Shown piece after piece: positions 1-6,984 of a stretch of 6,984 nt of DNA; position 1 is the first letter of the stretch, and each line of letters opens with the position of its first letter. Both the position numbers and the translations under genes were made by a program. The notes beneath the pieces were generated by a model. The model was not told where the DNA came from. It saw nothing but the letters and a program-made list of their open reading frames with translations, and did not search any database. This DNA comes from a virus (taxonomy: Duplodnaviria; Heunggongvirae; Uroviricota; Caudoviricetes): the IMG/VR virus record IMGVR_UViG_2663763286_000013, positions 1 to 6,984 of that record; one strand, written 5' to 3'.

Positions 1-63
1 AAGAACCGTTCTGACAGCTTCGGCTTTGAACTCTTTAGAGTAACGTTGGGTTTTTCTGCTCAT
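1..63 (-). CDS. IS3-family transposase OrfA, N-terminal fragment (gene continues beyond window start)
   Basis: Reverse complement of 1-63 translates MSRKTQRYSKEFKAEAVRTVL, a typical IS3-family OrfA helix-turn-helix N-terminus. ATG is the complement of 61-63. An AAGGAG Shine-Dalgarno (complement of 70-75) lies 6 nt upstream. Not in the ORF track because it runs off the window. Confidence 0.8.
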   Translation of the reverse strand, partial: MSRKTQRYSKEFKAEAVRTVL

Positions 64-127
64 TATTAGCTCCTTCTGATGCCATTCTATTTCAGGAAGG
101 AGTGTCCGTTAAACTCAGGCTACCTCA
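1..127 (-). mobile_element. Left-hand IS3-family insertion sequence, terminal part (IR and orfA leader); outer end near 127
   Basis: Read on the minus strand from 127, the sequence starts TGAGGTAGCCTGAGTTTAACGGACAC, i.e. the 5'-TG terminus typical of IS3-family ends, about 64 nt upstream of the orfA ATG. The exact boundary is inferred, not proven. Confidence 0.55.
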
Positions 128-372
128 CTCTGGTATCTCGCGGTCGCGTAACGGCCCTAGAGGCGAATGCACAGGGAACATCCGGGATTCAGCTGTATGA
201 GGCATACAACAATGGCTACCCTTCCACCTATGGCAATGTGCTTCACCTTAAAGGTGCCACCGCTGCTGGCGAAGGTGAGTTATTCATTGGCTGGAGTGGC
301 ACGAGCGGTGACCATGCGCCCGTACATATCCGTTCGCGGCGTGATACTGATTCTGCCAACTGGTCTGAATGG
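128..372 (+). pseudogene. Upstream (N-proximal) fragment of the tail-fibre gene, cut by the IS and out of frame with the downstream part
   Basis: Frame 1 is open from 70 and encodes protein-like sequence (…[53 protein letters not shown]) up to about 372, then becomes low-complexity. Frame 0 is closed by TGA at 309-311 and 366-368 and only becomes tail-fibre-like from 369. Its upstream end abuts the IS terminus. Confidence 0.4.
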
Positions 373-1418
373 CGCAGGTCTATACGTCAAAAGATTCAAT
401 TCCCGGCGTCAATGCCAAAGGGGATCAGGACACCTCTGGTAATGCGGCTACAGCGACCAAGTTGCAGACAGCATGTACTATCAATGGCGTCTCGTTTGAT
501 GGTTCTACTGATATCACTTTAACCGCTGCGCATGTTGCTGCTTTTGCCAGAAGAGCAACGGATACGTATGCCGATGCGGATGGTGGCGTTCCCTGGAATG
601 CCGAATCAGGCGCTTACAATGTCACCCGCTCTGGCGACAGCTATATTCTGGTTAACTTCTATACCGGAGTCGGAAGTTGCCAGACCTTGCAGATGAAGGC
701 GCATTACAGAAATGGTGGTCTGTTCTACCGTTCTTCAAGAGACGGTTATGGTTTTGAGGAAGACTGGGCAGAAGTTTATACCTCGAAAAATCTTCCACAA
801 GAAAGCTACCCAGTCGGCGCACCAATCCCGTGGCCATCAGATACCGTTCCGTCTGGTTATGCCCTGATGCAGGGGCAGACTTTTGACAAATCTGCCTACC
901 CGAAACTTGCAGCCGCTTATCCGTCAGGCGTGATCCCTGATATGCGTGGCTGGACGATTAAGGGCAAGCCCGCCAGCGGTCGAGCCGTATTGTCTCAGGA
1001 ACAGGACGGCATTAAATCGCACACCCACAGCGCCAGTGCATCCAGTACGGATTTGGGGACGAAAACCACATCGTCGTTTGATTACGGTACTAAAACGACC
1101 AGTTCATTTGATTACGGCACAAAAACCACGAATAGCGCTGGAAATCATTCACACAATATACCTGTTGGTCACACTGGCGCGGGGAATGGTGTATCAGCCG
1201 GTTATAACGCTGCGTTAGGTACTGGTACCACGTCGAGCGCAGGCGGGCATGCTCACAATGTATATATCGGTGCCCATAACCACACTATCGGCATTGGTGC
1301 TCATGCCCATTCTGTCATTATTGGTCCCCACGGACACACCATCACCGTTAACGCTACGGGTAACGAAGAAAACACCGTAAAAAACATCGCATTTAACTAT
1401 ATTGTGAGGCTTGCATAA
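369..1418 (+). CDS. Phage tail fibre protein, C-terminal (distal, receptor-binding) part; probably a fragment of a disrupted longer gene
   Basis: 349-aa ORF with tail-fibre hallmarks: [12 protein letters not shown]…[15 protein letters not shown], a Gly/Thr/Ser-rich region, His-x-His repeats ([33 protein letters not shown]) and the C-terminus [11 protein letters not shown]. Its stop overlaps the start of the next gene (TAATG at 1416-1420). Confidence 0.8.
1056..1130 (+). repeat. Imperfect 30-bp tandem repeat (about 2.5 copies) inside the tail-fibre gene, encoding [10 protein letters not shown] repeats
   Basis: Codons 1056-1085 and 1086-1115 both encode [10 protein letters not shown]; 1116-1130 encodes GTKTT. 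Read directly from the sequence. Confidence 0.8.
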
Positions 1419-1996
1419 TGACATTCAGAATGAGTGAACAATCACGGACCATAAAAATTTATAATCTACTGGCCGGAACCAATGAGTTTATTGGTAAAGG
1501 TGATGCATACATTCCACCTCATACAGGTCTGCCTGCAAACAGTACCGATATTGCCCCGCCAGATATTCCGGCTGGCTTCGTGGCCGTTTTCAACAGTGAT
1601 GAGGCATCGTGGAATCTCGTTGAAGACCATCGGGGAAAAACCGTCTATGACGTGGCTTCCGGCGACGCGTTATTTATTTCTGAACTTGGCCCATTACCGG
1701 AAAATGTCACCTGGTTATCCCCGGAAGGGGAGTTTCAGAAGTGGAACGGCACAGCCTGGGTGAAAGATGCAGAAGCAGAAAAACTGTTCCGGATCCGGAA
1801 GGCGGAAGAAACAAAAAACAGCCTGATGCAGATGGCCAGTGAGCATATTGCGCCACTTCAGGATGCCGTAGATTTGGATATTGCGACGGAGGAAGAGGCA
1901 TCGTTACTGACTGCATGGAAGACATATCGGGTATTGTTGAATCGTGTTGATACAGCAGTAGCAGCGGATGTTGAGTGGCCAGTCGCCCCGCAATAA
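1418..1996 (+). CDS. Tail fibre assembly protein (Tfa, chaperone, lambda Tfa / Mu U family)
   Basis: 192-aa ORF translationally coupled to the tail fibre (ATG overlaps its TAA), with GAGG about 9 nt upstream. The C-terminal domain …[50 protein letters not shown] is the conserved Tfa C-terminal motif. Confidence 0.9.
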
Positions 1997-2039
1997 AAAG
2001 ATAAAGCCATCGATAGAAATATTGATGGCTTTATGTACT
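1997..2039. terminator. Bidirectional intrinsic terminator between the convergent tfa and acetyltransferase genes
   Basis: Perfect 9-bp stem aaagccatc (2003-2011) / gatggcttt (2024-2032) with a 12-nt loop. On the minus strand the hairpin is followed by AUCUUUUUAUU; on the plus strand by a weaker U-rich stretch. Confidence 0.55.
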
Positions 2040-2612
2040 CTATTTATACAATACAACACCGCTCTTTTTAGTAATATATGTGCAGTTCGATGGTATATCT
2101 TTATTTATAAAAGACATTGCACCTATTTTTACATTATCCCCAATTTTACGTGATAATCCAATGATGCAACAATTAGCTCCGATATCAACGTTGCTACCAA
2201 TTTTTACTCTTGAACCAGGTATGTCACCATCTATCTGTCCAATGGTCGTATTCTGTCGTAACACCAGATTTTCACCAGCATCAACAGCAAAATGAACAAC
2301 AATTCCAGCATGATGGGGAATTGTTAACCCTTTTCCAATATTTGCGCCCAATCCAATTTCACAACCAAATTTGTTAATTATTTTACTGTTTAACTTTTTG
2401 GCTGCTTTCTTATGTAATTTATTACCATTAATATGCATTTCATTAGCCAATCTCCACCAGAAAAGGAAATTCCGATTGCGCTGCCTCTTCTCTCTTAATA
2501 GTCGCCAAACATCCATTTTTTCACGCCTGATGACTTCAGCCATCCAATAGCTCAATAGAGCTTTTGAATTCCCAAAGATGACAAAGTGAATAGCTATTAA
2601 GTAACATAACAT
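2040..2612 (-). CDS. Hexapeptide-repeat (left-handed beta-helix) O-acetyltransferase, serine acetyltransferase (CysE)/WcaB-like; start codon uncertain
   Basis: 190-aa ORF containing …GCEIGLGANIGKGLTIPHHAGIVVHFAVDAGENLVLRQNTTIGQ… followed by further [LIV]-G-x-x-x-x hexapeptide repeats. AT-rich codon usage unlike the flanking phage genes. Both candidate starts (2612 and the internal ATG at 2543) have weak SD sequences. Confidence 0.7.
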   Translation of the reverse strand: MLCYLIAIHFVIFGNSKALLSYWMAEVIRREKMDVWRLLREKRQRNRNFLFWWRLANEMHINGNKLHKKAAKKLNSKIINKFGCEIGLGANIGKGLTIPHHAGIVVHFAVDAGENLVLRQNTTIGQIDGDIPGSRVKIGSNVDIGANCCIIGLSRKIGDNVKIGAMSFINKDIPSNCTYITKKSGVVLYK

Positions 2613-3100
2613 ATTGCAACTGCCTATATTTTTGGTTTCTATGGTTATATATCGACATTATAATTAAAACAATAAGCATCAGTGTGTTACTGCGTTCCTG
2701 CTAAACTAAACCAACGCACAATGTAAACACAAATATTAATTTTAAACTGAGCACTAAAGGGATGTCAATATTGTATTGATAATAAGTTGCAAGATTGCCA
2801 CTACTTTCTGTATTTTGGGATGCAATAATTTATATTTTATCTATTCAGTGTTTCTTTGGGCTTATTAAGGATGTCATTATTAATTTATGGCTTGCCATTT
2901 CTATACATATCTGTTAAAAATTTTGATTTGTCTATTGAAAATAGATTTAATTGATTGATTTAATTTTTACATGACGCTCTTTAATATAACTTCAGGTATA
3001 TTAAAGCACATGCATTATATCCAGAGAAAATTAACAAAATTGTTAGCCCTTATTTGTTGGGATTATAGATATTAATTAAGGCCCGATCCCGGGCCTTTCC
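2613..3100. other. AT-rich non-coding spacer; presumably holds the acetyltransferase promoter
   Basis: No ORF of 60 aa or more on either strand. Very AT-rich with short direct repeats (e.g. gatttaatt twice around 2945-2970). Function not determinable from sequence alone. Confidence 0.3.
3078..3097. terminator. GC-rich hairpin just downstream of the minus-strand tfa-relic stop codon; possible terminator remnant
   Basis: aaggcccg (3078-3085) / cgggcctt (3090-3097) form an 8-bp stem with a 4-nt loop. No clean U-tract on either strand, so confidence is low. Confidence 0.3.
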
Positions 3101-3337
3101 TCATTCCGGCTTTTCGGGAAACGTTACTGGAAGGATGGAGGTATCCGTGGATTCGACTTTCTGCGCATAGAGAATCCACTCGGTTAATTTTTGTTTACCC
3201 TGAACGGAAATAATGCCTAGCCGTAACTGTGAGTCCCAGAGCTGAGTTTTATCCCTGACGAGTTGTAGCAGGCTTTGCTTTTCTTTTTCCGCTTGTTGTC
3301 TTTGCATGACCGGTTGAGAAGTTACTTTGCATACCAT
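3101..3337 (-). pseudogene. Relic of a second tail fibre assembly gene (C-terminal domain only; U-prime-like), opposite in orientation to the intact tfa
   Basis: The minus-strand ORF ends …MQRQQAEKEKQSLLQLVRDKTQLWDSQLRLGIISVQGKQKLTEWILYAQKVESTDTSILPVTFPEKPE, which aligns with the C-terminal domain of the plus-strand Tfa (K-SL-Q…L-D…W-Y…V-T…WP-P pattern). The upstream part of the track ORF 3101-3598 is antisense to the holin-like gene and is not credible coding. Confidence 0.6.
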
Positions 3338-3365
3338 TACCTCCTGACAACGTAGGAGGGAACTT

Positions 3366-3695
3366 GTGCTTGACACACAGGAATTAGCTCCAGTTGCTAT
3401 TGCGCTCCTGCTTTCAGTAATTGGTGGGATAGGCACGTTCCTGATGGATGTCCGAGACGGTCGCCAGTCTGGCAATTTGTTGGGATTGGTTACGGAGATC
3501 TTTGTTGCAGTGACAGCTGGCGCGGTGGCGTACCTATTGGGGCAACACGAGGGCTGGGAGTTATCAATTACGTACTTAATGGTAACGATAGCCAGCAATA
3601 ACGGTCATGAGGTGATTTCAGGGATGAAACGAGTGAATATCGATAGCATTCTGAATGTTCTTACAAGTTTGGTGAAAAAGGGAGGCGGGAAATGA
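3366..3695 (+). CDS. lydA: Holin-like small membrane protein (3 predicted TM segments, charged C-terminus); candidate LydA-type holin
   Basis: GTG start preceded by AGGAGG (3354-3359) with a 6-nt spacer. Hydrophobic stretches LAPVAIALLLSVIGGIGTFLM, LLGLVTEIFVAVTAGAVAYLL and LSITYLMVTIA, then a basic tail …LVKKGGGK. First gene of a coupled five-gene operon. The gene symbol is by inferred homology to the P1 darA operon, not by a search. Confidence 0.6.
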   Translation: MLDTQELAPVAIALLLSVIGGIGTFLMDVRDGRQSGNLLGLVTEIFVAVTAGAVAYLLGQHEGWELSITYLMVTIASNNGHEVISGMKRVNIDSILNVLTSLVKKGGGK

Positions 3696-4135
3696 TTGGC
3701 TGGGGTGTATGCGTTCTTGCGTTAGCCTTAGCCGATCGCTATTTGCTAAAACGCAAGGACATCACGCATTTAGAACTTGGTGATGTGGAAATTAAACCGG
3801 GTTTCATCCGGGTGCCGTTCAAATACCGGTCTAAATTCCCGTTTTTGCGCGGCGCAACGGTCAGATATTGGATCCGCGATGTTCAGAAGCCAACGACAGT
3901 GATTGAAGGCGAACAACGTTGTCTGACGTCGGCTGAACAGGGCGAAAACAGTGAATGGTTGTACATACCCACTGAATATATGGGTAAAGGAGAACGGCTG
4001 TGGCATTTCAACGTCATGGTTACGCATGGCGACTCGTTCATTAACCCGTTGTATCGGATTTTCCCTGTTACTCAGCAAATCCGCAGAAGTTACGTAATAA
4101 ATCTCGCACAGGATGTGTCAGATGACGAAAAATAA
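3692..4135 (+). CDS. lydB: Membrane-anchored protein, candidate LydB-type antiholin
   Basis: ATG overlaps the upstream stop (ATGA at 3692-3695), with GGAGG at 3681-3685. N-terminal hydrophobic segment MIGWGVCVLALALA, then a soluble domain. Named by position and size in the inferred darA-type operon. Confidence 0.5.
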   Translation: MIGWGVCVLALALADRYLLKRKDITHLELGDVEIKPGFIRVPFKYRSKFPFLRGATVRYWIRDVQKPTTVIEGEQRCLTSAEQGENSEWLYIPTEYMGKGERLWHFNVMVTHGDSFINPLYRIFPVTQQIRRSYVINLAQDVSDDEK

Positions 4136-4724
4136 GTATGCAACGGTCGATTTTGACCAGGTTAATGAAAAGGGGCTGAAATCCCTTATCGCGGCGATCA
4201 ATAAAACCGGTGTTACGGTAATTGAGGTTGACTCCAGCAACCGCGCAACAACGAAAGATGGCGTTAAAGTTAAAACCGCAAAGCTGGTTCTTAACGACGG
4301 ACAAATTCTTGCCATACAGGTAAACGATACTGGCGATATATCGTCTGTGAGGCTGAATGGAAAAGCTATTCCTAACGCTCAATCGCCGGATATCAAGACG
4401 CTTGGTACCGTCATGGGGCAGGCGGCCCGCAAAAACTCCGCAAAATTCCAGAAATCACTGATCGCCAAAGCGAAACGTGTTGCCAATCCGGTAGACAAGA
4501 AACCGGCAGTAAAATCCAACTTTCAGCGCCTGCAAGAGGCAAAACAGCGGAATGCTCAGGTGGTTGCCGCTTATAAATCAGCGCAGAACTCGGTGTCTTT
4601 CAATCAACAGCAGATCACTGATTTGCGGGCGAAGCTGGATAAGGAGACAGGCCGACTCAATAACGAAAAGGCCCGAAATGGCGAACTCAAACGCCGTCTT
4701 AAGCAACTGAAAGCAGGAAATTAA
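4122..4724 (+). CDS. hdf: Hdf-like protein (homologue of a fragment of the downstream large protein) with a C-terminal coiled coil
   Basis: Probable start at the ATG at 4122 (AGGA at 4109-4112); the track ORF starts at 4113. Shares a conserved block with the next gene (…DGQ-I-I…TLG/AQV-M…KNSAKFQ followed by a Lys-rich coiled coil). The KNSAKFQ-coding 21-mer at 4430-4450 matches 5329-5349 at 19/21 nt. Confidence 0.55.
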   Translation: MTKNKYATVDFDQVNEKGLKSLIAAINKTGVTVIEVDSSNRATTKDGVKVKTAKLVLNDGQILAIQVNDTGDISSVRLNGKAIPNAQSPDIKTLGTVMGQAARKNSAKFQKSLIAKAKRVANPVDKKPAVKSNFQRLQEAKQRNAQVVAAYKSAQNSVSFNQQQITDLRAKLDKETGRLNNEKARNGELKRRLKQLKAGN

Positions 4725-4725
4725 C

Positions 4726-6645
4726 ATGGAACAGTTCAATATCAATAAAGGGGTGACGATCAAGCCTGGGCTTGACGTGCTTCCCCCGCCAGTGACTGAT
4801 GATGAATATCGCGCATTAATGGCCGGTGAGGACCGCTATCTGATGACGGAATCCAACACCCTGGAGGAAATCGAGGCTACGTTCTTCTATGACACGCCGA
4901 TCCACTGGTGTGCTACGGATTTACTGGAGGCGATTAGTTCTACTCGTTTGCAGTTACACCGGACCATGCAGGCATTTGTCCGGGCATTGAACCAGAAGCT
5001 GAATGGTACCGGAATCTCTGCGGGGAGTGATAAAACGGGGGATGTGGCCCAGAGCGGCGCGCGCGCGATCGGCGGAGCTGAAATTGGTCGGGCACGTAAC
5101 GTTAACGGGCTGTCGGTCCTGCCAGCCATTATTCCGCTCAGTGATGGTCAGACTATCAGCATTTTGTTTCATAGCCCGACAGCGGAAAACCGGATCACCA
5201 ATAGCGATACGCTGGTTGCTTTCCAGTTCTTACTGAATAAAAAAGACGTTACTCACACCGTTGCTCCGATGAGTGGACGTGATATGACGCTGGCGCAGGT
5301 CACCATGAAACTTGCCAACCTTGCAGAGAAAAACTCGGCAAAATTTCAGCGTGCGCAGAAGAAGAAAAAAGCCCTTGTTGATGAAATAACCCAACTACAG
5401 GCTGACAGTGACCAGAAAGAGGATGCCATGAGCGACCTCGTGGATCAGGTGGCAGCGGTAGAAGGGCAGAAGGTAGATCTGGAGCAGAAAATTAACGCTG
5501 TTGCATCGGAAGCGGATTCTCTTTATGAAGAGAATGAGCGTTTGCAGACGGAGATTGATCAGCTCAATCGAACTGGTGGGCGCGAAACCATTGCTCCTGC
5601 GGGGATGACTGGTGGACACTCTCGCGCGATGACGGATCGCCTTGCAAGTATCAAAAATCGTATGCATATGAACGGGGAAGTGACGCTCAGTAATGGTGCA
5701 TCAATGAAGCAATTCATTGAGGACGGTGAAGGGTATATCCAGTTAACCGATTCGGATGGCAGCGTGTACATGATCAAGGCTAAATCCATACAGGGTGTGG
5801 ACATGGCAGATGCGATCGGCAAGCTGTTTAAAGCCTATAAAGCGGGTAATGTATCGGAATACCTAGTCCAACCAGAAGAACATAAACCGGAAAACGTCGA
5901 ACCTGAACCAGCGGAGGATACCGGTAGCTCTTCGCCTGAACCAGAAGTCTCTGTAGGTGCATATCGATATGCCCTGCAAATGCGTCCGGCGGCCCCTGGC
6001 GCAATACCTGAAGGTAACAAAGCAATTCTGCCGCGCCCTGATGAAGGTGACCCGTATTATGAATATGCACGCTACGGCATTGCTACTTACGATACCCCGC
6101 TTTCTGATCAGCAAATGAGTGAGTACGACCTGAAGTTATTGCCTCGCGAGGATTCTTTCGACTTCCTGGCGAAGACACTTACTAATGGTCCGTTTGGCAA
6201 ATATGCACAAAAAGCTCTGGAGCTGGCCACCAGCTCACCAGACGAGTTCCGCGTAATGCTGAAAACTCAGTTTCAAAAAACTTTCCCCAATATTGCGTAT
6301 CCGGGGGGCGCTGGCACCGAGAAAATGGTGCAGAGCATGATCAATGCATTGCAGGCCGAAGTCGGTGAGATTACTCAGCCAGAACCTGCCCCGGCACAGC
6401 CTGATGAAACGGTTAGCGAAGCAGATGCAGAGGCTAATAAAGCCATTGAATATCTCAATAACGTGATGGATATGCAAAGCACTGACATGGCGGAGATCCG
6501 TAACGCCCGGGGTAATGTCCGGGAAGCGATTGCAGCCCTTCAGGCTGCCGGGCGTTTTGAGGAAAACGAAGAGCTGGTTAATGGCGCTGCTCGCCACCTG
6601 GCTGATCTGCTGGTAGCAATCCAGAAAGCGGGGGTAGCGGCATGA
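4726..6645 (+). CDS. darA: Large DarA-like protein (639 aa): candidate capsid-packaged antirestriction protein
   Basis: ATG at 4726 with AGGA 7 nt upstream, immediately after the upstream stop. Has a central coiled coil (…ALVDEITQLQADSDQKEDAMSDLVDQVAAVEGQKVDLEQKINAVASEADSLYEENERLQTEIDQL…) and acidic Pro/Glu-rich linkers. Its N-proximal region is paralogous to the preceding gene. Assignment to DarA is an inference from operon architecture and size. Confidence 0.55.
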   Translation: MEQFNINKGVTIKPGLDVLPPPVTDDEYRALMAGEDRYLMTESNTLEEIEATFFYDTPIHWCATDLLEAISSTRLQLHRTMQAFVRALNQKLNGTGISAGSDKTGDVAQSGARAIGGAEIGRARNVNGLSVLPAIIPLSDGQTISILFHSPTAENRITNSDTLVAFQFLLNKKDVTHTVAPMSGRDMTLAQVTMKLANLAEKNSAKFQRAQKKKKALVDEITQLQADSDQKEDAMSDLVDQVAAVEGQKVDLEQKINAVASEADSLYEENERLQTEIDQLNRTGGRETIAPAGMTGGHSRAMTDRLASIKNRMHMNGEVTLSNGASMKQFIEDGEGYIQLTDSDGSVYMIKAKSIQGVDMADAIGKLFKAYKAGNVSEYLVQPEEHKPENVEPEPAEDTGSSSPEPEVSVGAYRYALQMRPAAPGAIPEGNKAILPRPDEGDPYYEYARYGIATYDTPLSDQQMSEYDLKLLPREDSFDFLAKTLTNGPFGKYAQKALELATSSPDEFRVMLKTQFQKTFPNIAYPGGAGTEKMVQSMINALQAEVGEITQPEPAPAQPDETVSEADAEANKAIEYLNNVMDMQSTDMAEIRNARGNVREAIAALQAAGRFEENEELVNGAARHLADLLVAIQKAGVAA

Positions 6646-6782
6646 CACTATCAGCTATTGAGTTAATGGATCTCAGCGATAAGTTGGATGCTCTGATGTC
6701 CAAAGCGGCTACCGCGAGTGGCATGGAGTTGCTGGATATCAGCGATGAAATTGACCAGATCATGCAACAGATGGGGTACTGA
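6642..6782 (+). CDS. Small ORF (46 aa) coupled to the DarA-like gene; possibly a 3'-truncated ddrA-like gene whose stop codon is supplied by the IS end
   Basis: ATG at 6642 overlaps the upstream TGA (ATGA). Encodes MTLSAIELMDLSDKLDALMSKAATASGMELLDISDEIDQIMQQMGY, with an internal 14-aa duplication. Its stop TGA (6780-6782) is the first three bases of the IS inverted repeat TGAACCGCC. Below the ORF-track length cutoff. Confidence 0.5.
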   Translation: MTLSAIELMDLSDKLDALMSKAATASGMELLDISDEIDQIMQQMGY

Positions 6783-6867
6783 ACCGCCCCGGGTTTCCTG
6801 GAGAGTATTTTATCTGTGAACTCTGAACCGCCCCGGGTTTCCTGGAGAGTATTTTATCTGTGAACTC
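6780..6867. repeat. Perfect 44-bp tandem duplication of the IS terminal inverted repeat
   Basis: 6780-6823 and 6824-6867 are both tgaaccgccccgggtttcctggagagtattttatctgtgaactc. The repeat starts with the IS3-group terminal motif TGAACCGCCCCGGG. Confidence 0.9.
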
Positions 6868-6984
6868 AGGCTGCCAGATCATTATTTCCGATGGAAGCAT
6901 AATAAGCTTTTTCTGCTTCTGCCGGAGGAATATGGCCCAGCCTTTCCAGCAATCGTCGATTGTTATACCAGTCCACCCACGTTA
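6824..6984 (-). mobile_element. Right-hand IS3-family insertion sequence (IS629/IS3411-like end), right inverted repeat plus orfB 3' end; continues beyond the window
   Basis: Terminal sequence TGAACCGCCCCGGGTTTCCTGGAGAG is an IS3-group-type inverted repeat, immediately followed by the stop of a minus-strand transposase orfB. Confidence 0.75.
6866..6984 (-). CDS. IS3-family transposase OrfB, C-terminal fragment (gene start beyond window end)
   Basis: Reverse complement of 6866-6984 translates …TWVDWYNNRRLLERLGHIPPAEAEKAYYASIGNNDLAA then stop (complement of tca at 6866-6868). This is the conserved C-terminal tail of IS3-family integrase-type transposases. Confidence 0.8.
   Translation of the reverse strand, partial: TWVDWYNNRRLLERLGHIPPAEAEKAYYASIGNNDLAA

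Follow-up and report, generated by a model that had tools for sequence, protein, structure and literature searches.

P1-like phage-plasmids carry lydC, cin, Sv', U', U and S as one of their variable regions (PMC9603915), and in the Punavirus phage JL22 tfa and an acetyltransferase gene replace U and part of S (PMC9603915). JL22 keeps an invertible C segment with cin beside it: the 602-nt inverted arms lie at 8792-9393 and 13654-14255 of the JL22 locus used here (L002), and the crossover sites stand at the outer arm ends (cixL, TTATCCAATACCTTGGTTTAAGAGAA, at 8790-8815; cixR, CAATCCTAAACCTTGGTTTAAGAGAA). The degenerate P1-like plasmids pSvP1, pTZ20_1P and pJIE250-3 show IS-mediated loss of the tail-fibre/C-segment module (PMC6906374).

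The HK630 record carries the remark 'missing C relative to Ur-lambda'. In laboratory lambda, stf is reportedly split by a single-nucleotide deletion into orf-401 and orf-314, a frameshift said to have been described by Hendrix and Duda in 1992. Lambda can do without its side tail fibre; P1-type phages need the fibre to adsorb.

We analysed a 6,984-nt stretch of DNA (the window), contig JXWD01000094.1 of assembly GCA_000948825.1. Alignment identifies its positions 129-1418 as the 3' 1290 nt (the 3' 45%) of the 2850-nt S/stf tail-fibre gene of a P1-like (Punavirus) phage-plasmid. The locus is best read as a real, inherited and multiply disrupted pseudogene in an IS-dismantled phage-plasmid, bearing an IS600 cut and a lost G, and we give this whole account a probability of roughly 0.93. 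The main references were the E. coli O157:H7 plasmid pF1273-3 (L001), which has the intact counterpart of 2850 nt and 949 aa, and L003, a 120-kb contig of GCA_046575645.1 that extends beyond the IS600 end of the window. The features of the locus are as follows.

1-128, minus strand: left end of IS600 (IS3 family), the terminal inverted repeat ending ...CTACCTCA at 128; from the sequence and comparison with L003
127-514, plus strand: homologue of the 0.6-kb C-segment inverted repeat, one copy left; matches JL22 8999-9387 direct and 14048-13667 inverted
129-131, no strand: right copy of the 3-bp target-site duplication CTC; from L003 against the intact gene
130-372, plus strand: S/stf codons 521-601, with neither start codon nor promoter of their own; from frame reading, alignment and restored translation
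369-1418, plus strand: 349-aa ORF, fibre residues 602-949, with gp37_C and Collar domains (receptor-binding end); from the ORF, domain search and restored translation
371-372, plus strand: site of the 1-nt deletion, GG against GGG of intact genes (TGG-GCG, W601/A602), a -1 frameshift; from alignment to L001 and comparison of loci and genomes
373-522, plus strand: out-of-frame tail (RRSIRQKIQ...) of the upstream fragment, to TAA 520-522; from the ORF list and frame reading
1418-1996, plus strand: tail-fibre assembly gene tfa, intact; from the ORF, annotation and a domain match to Caudo_TAP (E 3.5e-42)

Compared with P1 gene S and its R, U and Cin/cix C segment, as represented by JL22 and pF1273-3, the locus is alike in gene order (R-S-tfa, then lydA-lydB-hdf-darA-ddrA) and in the match of 127-514 to the C-segment inverted repeat of P1/JL22. 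Unlike P1-type S, the gene here is cut by IS600 and frameshifted, and the element has lost cin, Sv', part of U' and lydC; in place of P1 Sv/U, the gene has a distal lambda-stf-like module, with tfa and the acetyltransferase gene behind it. As in stf of laboratory lambda, a 1-nt deletion yields two ORFs, of which the second is the receptor-binding end and is followed by tfa. The lambda deletion, however, sits in a different, non-homologous part of the gene, and the gene here has also been hit by IS insertions. Because P1-type phages depend on the fibre, a virion made by this element could not simply dispense with it as lambda does. With pSvP1, pTZ20_1P and pJIE250-3 the locus shares IS-driven damage to the cin/C-segment/tail-fibre region and fusion with other plasmid DNA (compare L003), but the IS elements and breakpoints differ, being here IS600, a second IS3-family element and an element we take to be IS629, together with a point frameshift.

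Global alignment of 129-1418 to pF1273-3 gave two differences in 1290 nt (99.8% identity), a missing G and a substitution at 812 (CCA for CCG) that is synonymous as judged from the codon. When the G was put back in silico, the 429-aa translation was 100% identical to residues 521-949 of the 949-aa protein. About 48 E. coli records match 129-1418 over its full length, and all those listed are plasmids of 72-102 kb from O157:H7, O111, O26, O103 and related strains, on which the region is annotated as 'phage tail protein / tail fiber protein', then 'tail fiber assembly protein'. The fibre DNA is 98.7% identical to phage vB_EcoM-Ro157c2YLVW and 98% identical to JL22 over 77%. Hence, both identity to annotated fibre genes (98-99.8% at the DNA level) and position (R ... 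tfa, beside the lydA-lydB-darA operon) place the gene with P1-type S/stf, while its full-length ORF is broken by IS600 at codon 521 and by the -1 frameshift at codons 601/602.

The 3' part of the gene has relatives outside P1-type phages. Where window 494-1418 aligns to the lambdoid stf genes of PhiR34_1, 2H10, ev099 and mEp332 (57-61% of the query), identity is 93-95%; 816-1418 is 88% identical to lambda orf-314 (in the orf-314/orf-194 alignment), and 515-806 has no match in JL22. By these matches the fibre gene holds a mosaic joint between P1-type and lambda-type fibre modules.

Reading the frames located the break within the gene. The frame from 130 reads LVSRGRVT... (LVSRGRVTALEANAQ...) up to 372, beyond which it codes for unrelated residues until TAA 520-522 ends it. 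In the frame of 369, TGA 366-368 shuts off reading from upstream, and ATG 369-371 then opens an ORF of 349 aa that extends to 1418. An exact look-up of the chimeric 147-aa ORF at 79-522, which spans both the IS junction and the frameshift, found none on record because gene callers had not called that ORF. The intact gene has GGG at 7243-7245 of L001 (...GAATGGGCGCAGG...), and the window has GG at 371-372 (...GAATGGCGCAGG...). A reading of the same DNA from its letters (the sequence-only reading) had described a protein-like frame from the IS boundary to about 372 with nonsense beyond it, and fibre sequence resuming in the frame of 369 behind the TGA; both descriptions hold. It had also expected that a 1-nt change around tgg-cgc-agg would join the two parts. 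Alignment at the DNA level, the check it had proposed, pinned the indel to GG 371-372, where one G is lost from TGG-GCG, and both parts proved collinear with one gene. Separately from the IS600 insertion, a G was thus lost from the GGG run at codons 601/602, for which we propose replication slippage as the simplest cause. Programmed ribosomal frameshifting was considered and rejected, since homologues have one uninterrupted frame and no slippery heptamer is present at GAA-TGG-CGC.

The second lesion is the IS600 insertion. On the minus strand, 63 to 1 encodes the start of IS600 OrfA (MSRKTQRYSKEFKAEAVRTVL), which runs leftwards off the contig. L003 carries the complete element at 8498-9758, with termini TGAGG...CCTCA and HTH_Tnp_1 and rve ORFs, and reads AATACTC-IS600-CTCTGG where the uninterrupted gene reads AATACTCTGG. 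This copy is 99.9% identical to elements annotated as 'IS3-like element IS600 family transposase'. The assignment to IS600 is thus based on TG...CA ends, a 3-bp duplication, OrfA/OrfB and near-identity to named copies, with the full-element features taken from L003 and only the terminal 128 nt lying inside the window. Transposition of IS600 into codon 521 left the CTC duplication and severed the gene from its N-terminal 520 codons and its promoter. L003 alone shows a third lesion, beyond the window: a second IS3-family element of ~1.2 kb at ~nt 262 of S, near codon 88. Both IS insertions of S in L003 have 3-bp flanking duplications, the second being flanked by TTC. The gene had been called doubly disrupted; the IS and the frameshift both stand, and L003, which reaches further, raises the count to three.

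We then compared other occurrences of the damaged gene. At least 9 recorded contigs encode exactly the 349-aa product, and 8 of these loci (L003-L010) were fetched. From NCBI came GCA_046575645.1 (L003), the window itself (L004), GCA_045758245.1, GCA_005384205.1 (L007) and GCA_002457885.1; the Logan assemblies from raw runs were ERR433398, SRR36032853 and SRR36257441. All eight loci have an identical 42-nt IS600/fibre junction together with the GG allele, and GGG occurs in none of them (0/8); L001 and JL22 have GGG. The loci differ from the window by 0-2 SNPs plus structural differences: L003 has the presumed IS629 in lydB, and the window and L005 have the right-hand IS in ddrA. Given these SNPs and the differing IS insertions and deletions, the loci come from separate isolates. 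The IS600 junction is absent from all 5426 complete E. coli genomes.

From these lesions the locus is predicted to make no fibre. The sequence-only reading had offered a pseudogene, a sequencing error or an inversion scar as options, and the pseudogene is the right one of the three, given IS600 at codon 521 and a real -1 frameshift. The upstream 81-codon fragment has neither a start nor a promoter of its own, and IS600 is transcribed away from it. That 129-1418 as a whole shows a single synonymous change besides the deletion points to recent decay. Downstream, ATG 369 is in frame only through the deletion, and the 349-aa ORF is without the 600 N-terminal residues, among them the Phage_fiber_2 repeats of the intact protein. 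One could still suppose that the 349-aa ORF and tfa are kept, either to express a free fibre tip or to donate sequence by recombination to stf of lambdoid (Stx) prophages in the same cell. In 8/8 loci the ORF is intact and identical; it still has an ATG and codes for the gp37_C and Collar domains, tfa is intact, and 494-1418 resembles lambdoid stf to the extent given above. Against this, no promoter-like site was found on the plus strand upstream of 369, the sole nearby one being on the minus strand within the IS, and no Shine-Dalgarno-like motif precedes the ATG (gccaactggtctgaATG). The N-terminal part for baseplate attachment is gone, and with 99.97% identity over the whole 6.8 kb, the sameness of the ORF among loci carries no information. 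We therefore give retention of a functional fibre tip or donor only a slight chance, and favour the pseudogene.

A sequencing or assembly error in a short homopolymer, which would leave the IS as the sole disruption, is a very improbable explanation for the missing G. The site is indeed a homopolymer (GGG), and a public relative, pRM10386-1, has homopolymer indels in three consecutive genes that resemble sequencing errors. However, those indels sit elsewhere, and the argument from concordance among independent assemblies goes the other way: the same IS600 junction and the same missing G recur in 7 other independent assemblies or read sets, three of them Logan assemblies from raw runs, which makes an error at this site very unlikely. 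About 120 other E. coli genomes cover the stretch; apart from RM10386, the 24 listed, which are without the IS600 junction, span 335 nt per 334 query nt and so have GGG. A recurrent error at one GGG, confined to IS-carrying genomes, is not credible. The error option of the sequence-only reading is thus countered, and the GG deletion, like the IS600 insertion, is a real mutation passed on by descent in one clonal lineage. We had considered pRM10386-1 as a carrier of the same deletion on account of its equal match length, and dropped it because its indels lie at other homopolymers. In this record (L011, NZ_CP028125.1), single-base homopolymer deletions occur at 1444-5483 in the fibre, tfa and acetyltransferase genes, all annotated 'frameshifted'; they are probably sequencing errors of that record.

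The window also bears on the inversion switch. The inner 388 nt of the JL22 left arm have their counterpart in window 127-514, and because this stretch matches both JL22 arms the region looks 'conserved'. The cixL position lies ~185 nt upstream of the IS600 site. A search of the window at up to 3 mismatches found no cix-like site, and the Hin/Gin/Cin core AAACCNNGGTTT at 2 mismatches gave 6 matches in the window against 3.6 expected by chance, none of them near the deletion. Neither a long inverted repeat or second arm nor a recombinase ORF was found in the window. Relative to JL22, 2.9 kb is deleted (cin, Sv', the 5' part of U' and lydC), with the junction at window 3284-3305 and a U' remnant at 3101-3337 on the minus strand. 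This deletion also occurs in pF1273-3-type plasmids with an intact fibre gene and is thus older than the IS600 and G lesions. Hence, the element has neither cin nor the two cix sites and paired 0.6-kb repeats of a Cin/cix switch, and loss of cin, Sv', part of U' and lydC would have locked fibre switching. L003 has a single remaining cixL, upstream of IS600, which carries a G-to-A change. The same change beside the core is seen in the cixL of the cin-less plasmids (L001 6790-6815; L003 8283-8308), which reads ACCTTGATTT, compared with ACCTTGGTTT in JL22.

The last of the three options, a frame change left as a scar by Cin-type site-specific inversion at a junction in the fibre gene, has next to no chance of being right: although 127-514 is homologous to the 0.6-kb C-segment inverted repeat of relatives such as JL22, the cix sites belong at the outer repeat ends, outside the window and ~430 nt upstream of the deletion, no cix-like sequence was found in the window at up to 3 mismatches, the DNA on either side of the deletion is base-for-base collinear with intact genes, and cin, Sv' and the second repeat are deleted here.

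The rest of the element shows what surrounds the pseudogene. pF1273-3 has the order sit, pmgA, bplA, gp16, R, S, tfa, acetyltransferase (minus strand), U' remnant (minus strand), lydA, lydB, hdf, darA and ddrA. From S onward the window has the same gene content, with tfa, lydA, lydB, hdf, darA and ddrA downstream of the fibre gene, and R and gp16 lie upstream of S in L003 and L001. The Punavirus gene order and the plasmid relatives indicate a P1-like phage-plasmid, not an integrated prophage, and the earlier label 'prophage' gives way to this on the strength of the plasmid matches and the P1 gene order. In L003 (13722-21050), P1-like DNA ends inside lydB at the presumed IS629-type element, which is followed by vapBC, an IS66-family element and espP, a setting like that of EHEC virulence plasmids; such an arrangement suggests a cointegrate or a rearranged hybrid plasmid. 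These flanks point to an STEC/EHEC-type E. coli as host. A Shigella host, guessed from the presence of IS600, was dropped, since the flanks of L003 match espP-carrying E. coli plasmids and the plasmids that are its nearest intact relatives come from O157, O111, O26 and O103 E. coli.

The locus is an instance of ordinary pseudogene formation, of an already known kind, and its value lies mainly in annotation: it should be entered as a pseudogene with three lesions, not as the 349-aa 'tail fibre protein' called in at least 8 data sets. By its sequence, the P1-like element of this STEC lineage would be adsorption-defective, taken apart by IS600 and the presumed IS629. The IS600 junction and the missing G together make a handy clonal marker for the lineage.

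Some further features of the window were seen alongside the fibre gene. Window ~2000-3100 is a low-G+C island (27-37%, against about 50% elsewhere). It contains a hexapeptide-repeat acetyltransferase gene at 2040-2612 on the minus strand, annotated as serine O-acetyltransferase / sacF, and ~490 nt without an annotated gene, and looks like an acquired cargo gene in the former C segment. At the other end of the window, within 6642-6984, an IS3-family element that begins at 6780, presumably IS629, truncates ddrA to 46 codons (against 121 in pF1273-3). It is identical to the 1310-bp IS that breaks bplA in pF1273-3. In this contig only, the terminal sequence of this right-hand IS (CTGAACCGCCCCGGGTTTCCTGGAGAGTATTTTATCTGTGAACT) is repeated in tandem at 6779-6866 as a perfect 44-nt duplication. 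The sister contigs L005 and L007 have one copy of the 44-nt sequence, and the duplication probably arose in assembly, at a contig end bounded by a repeat. L007 (GCA_005384205.1) carries an IS of the right-hand type at 1-360 as well, where it sits 28 nt into the IS600 end, and has lost 576 nt of its acetyltransferase region at 2684/2760.
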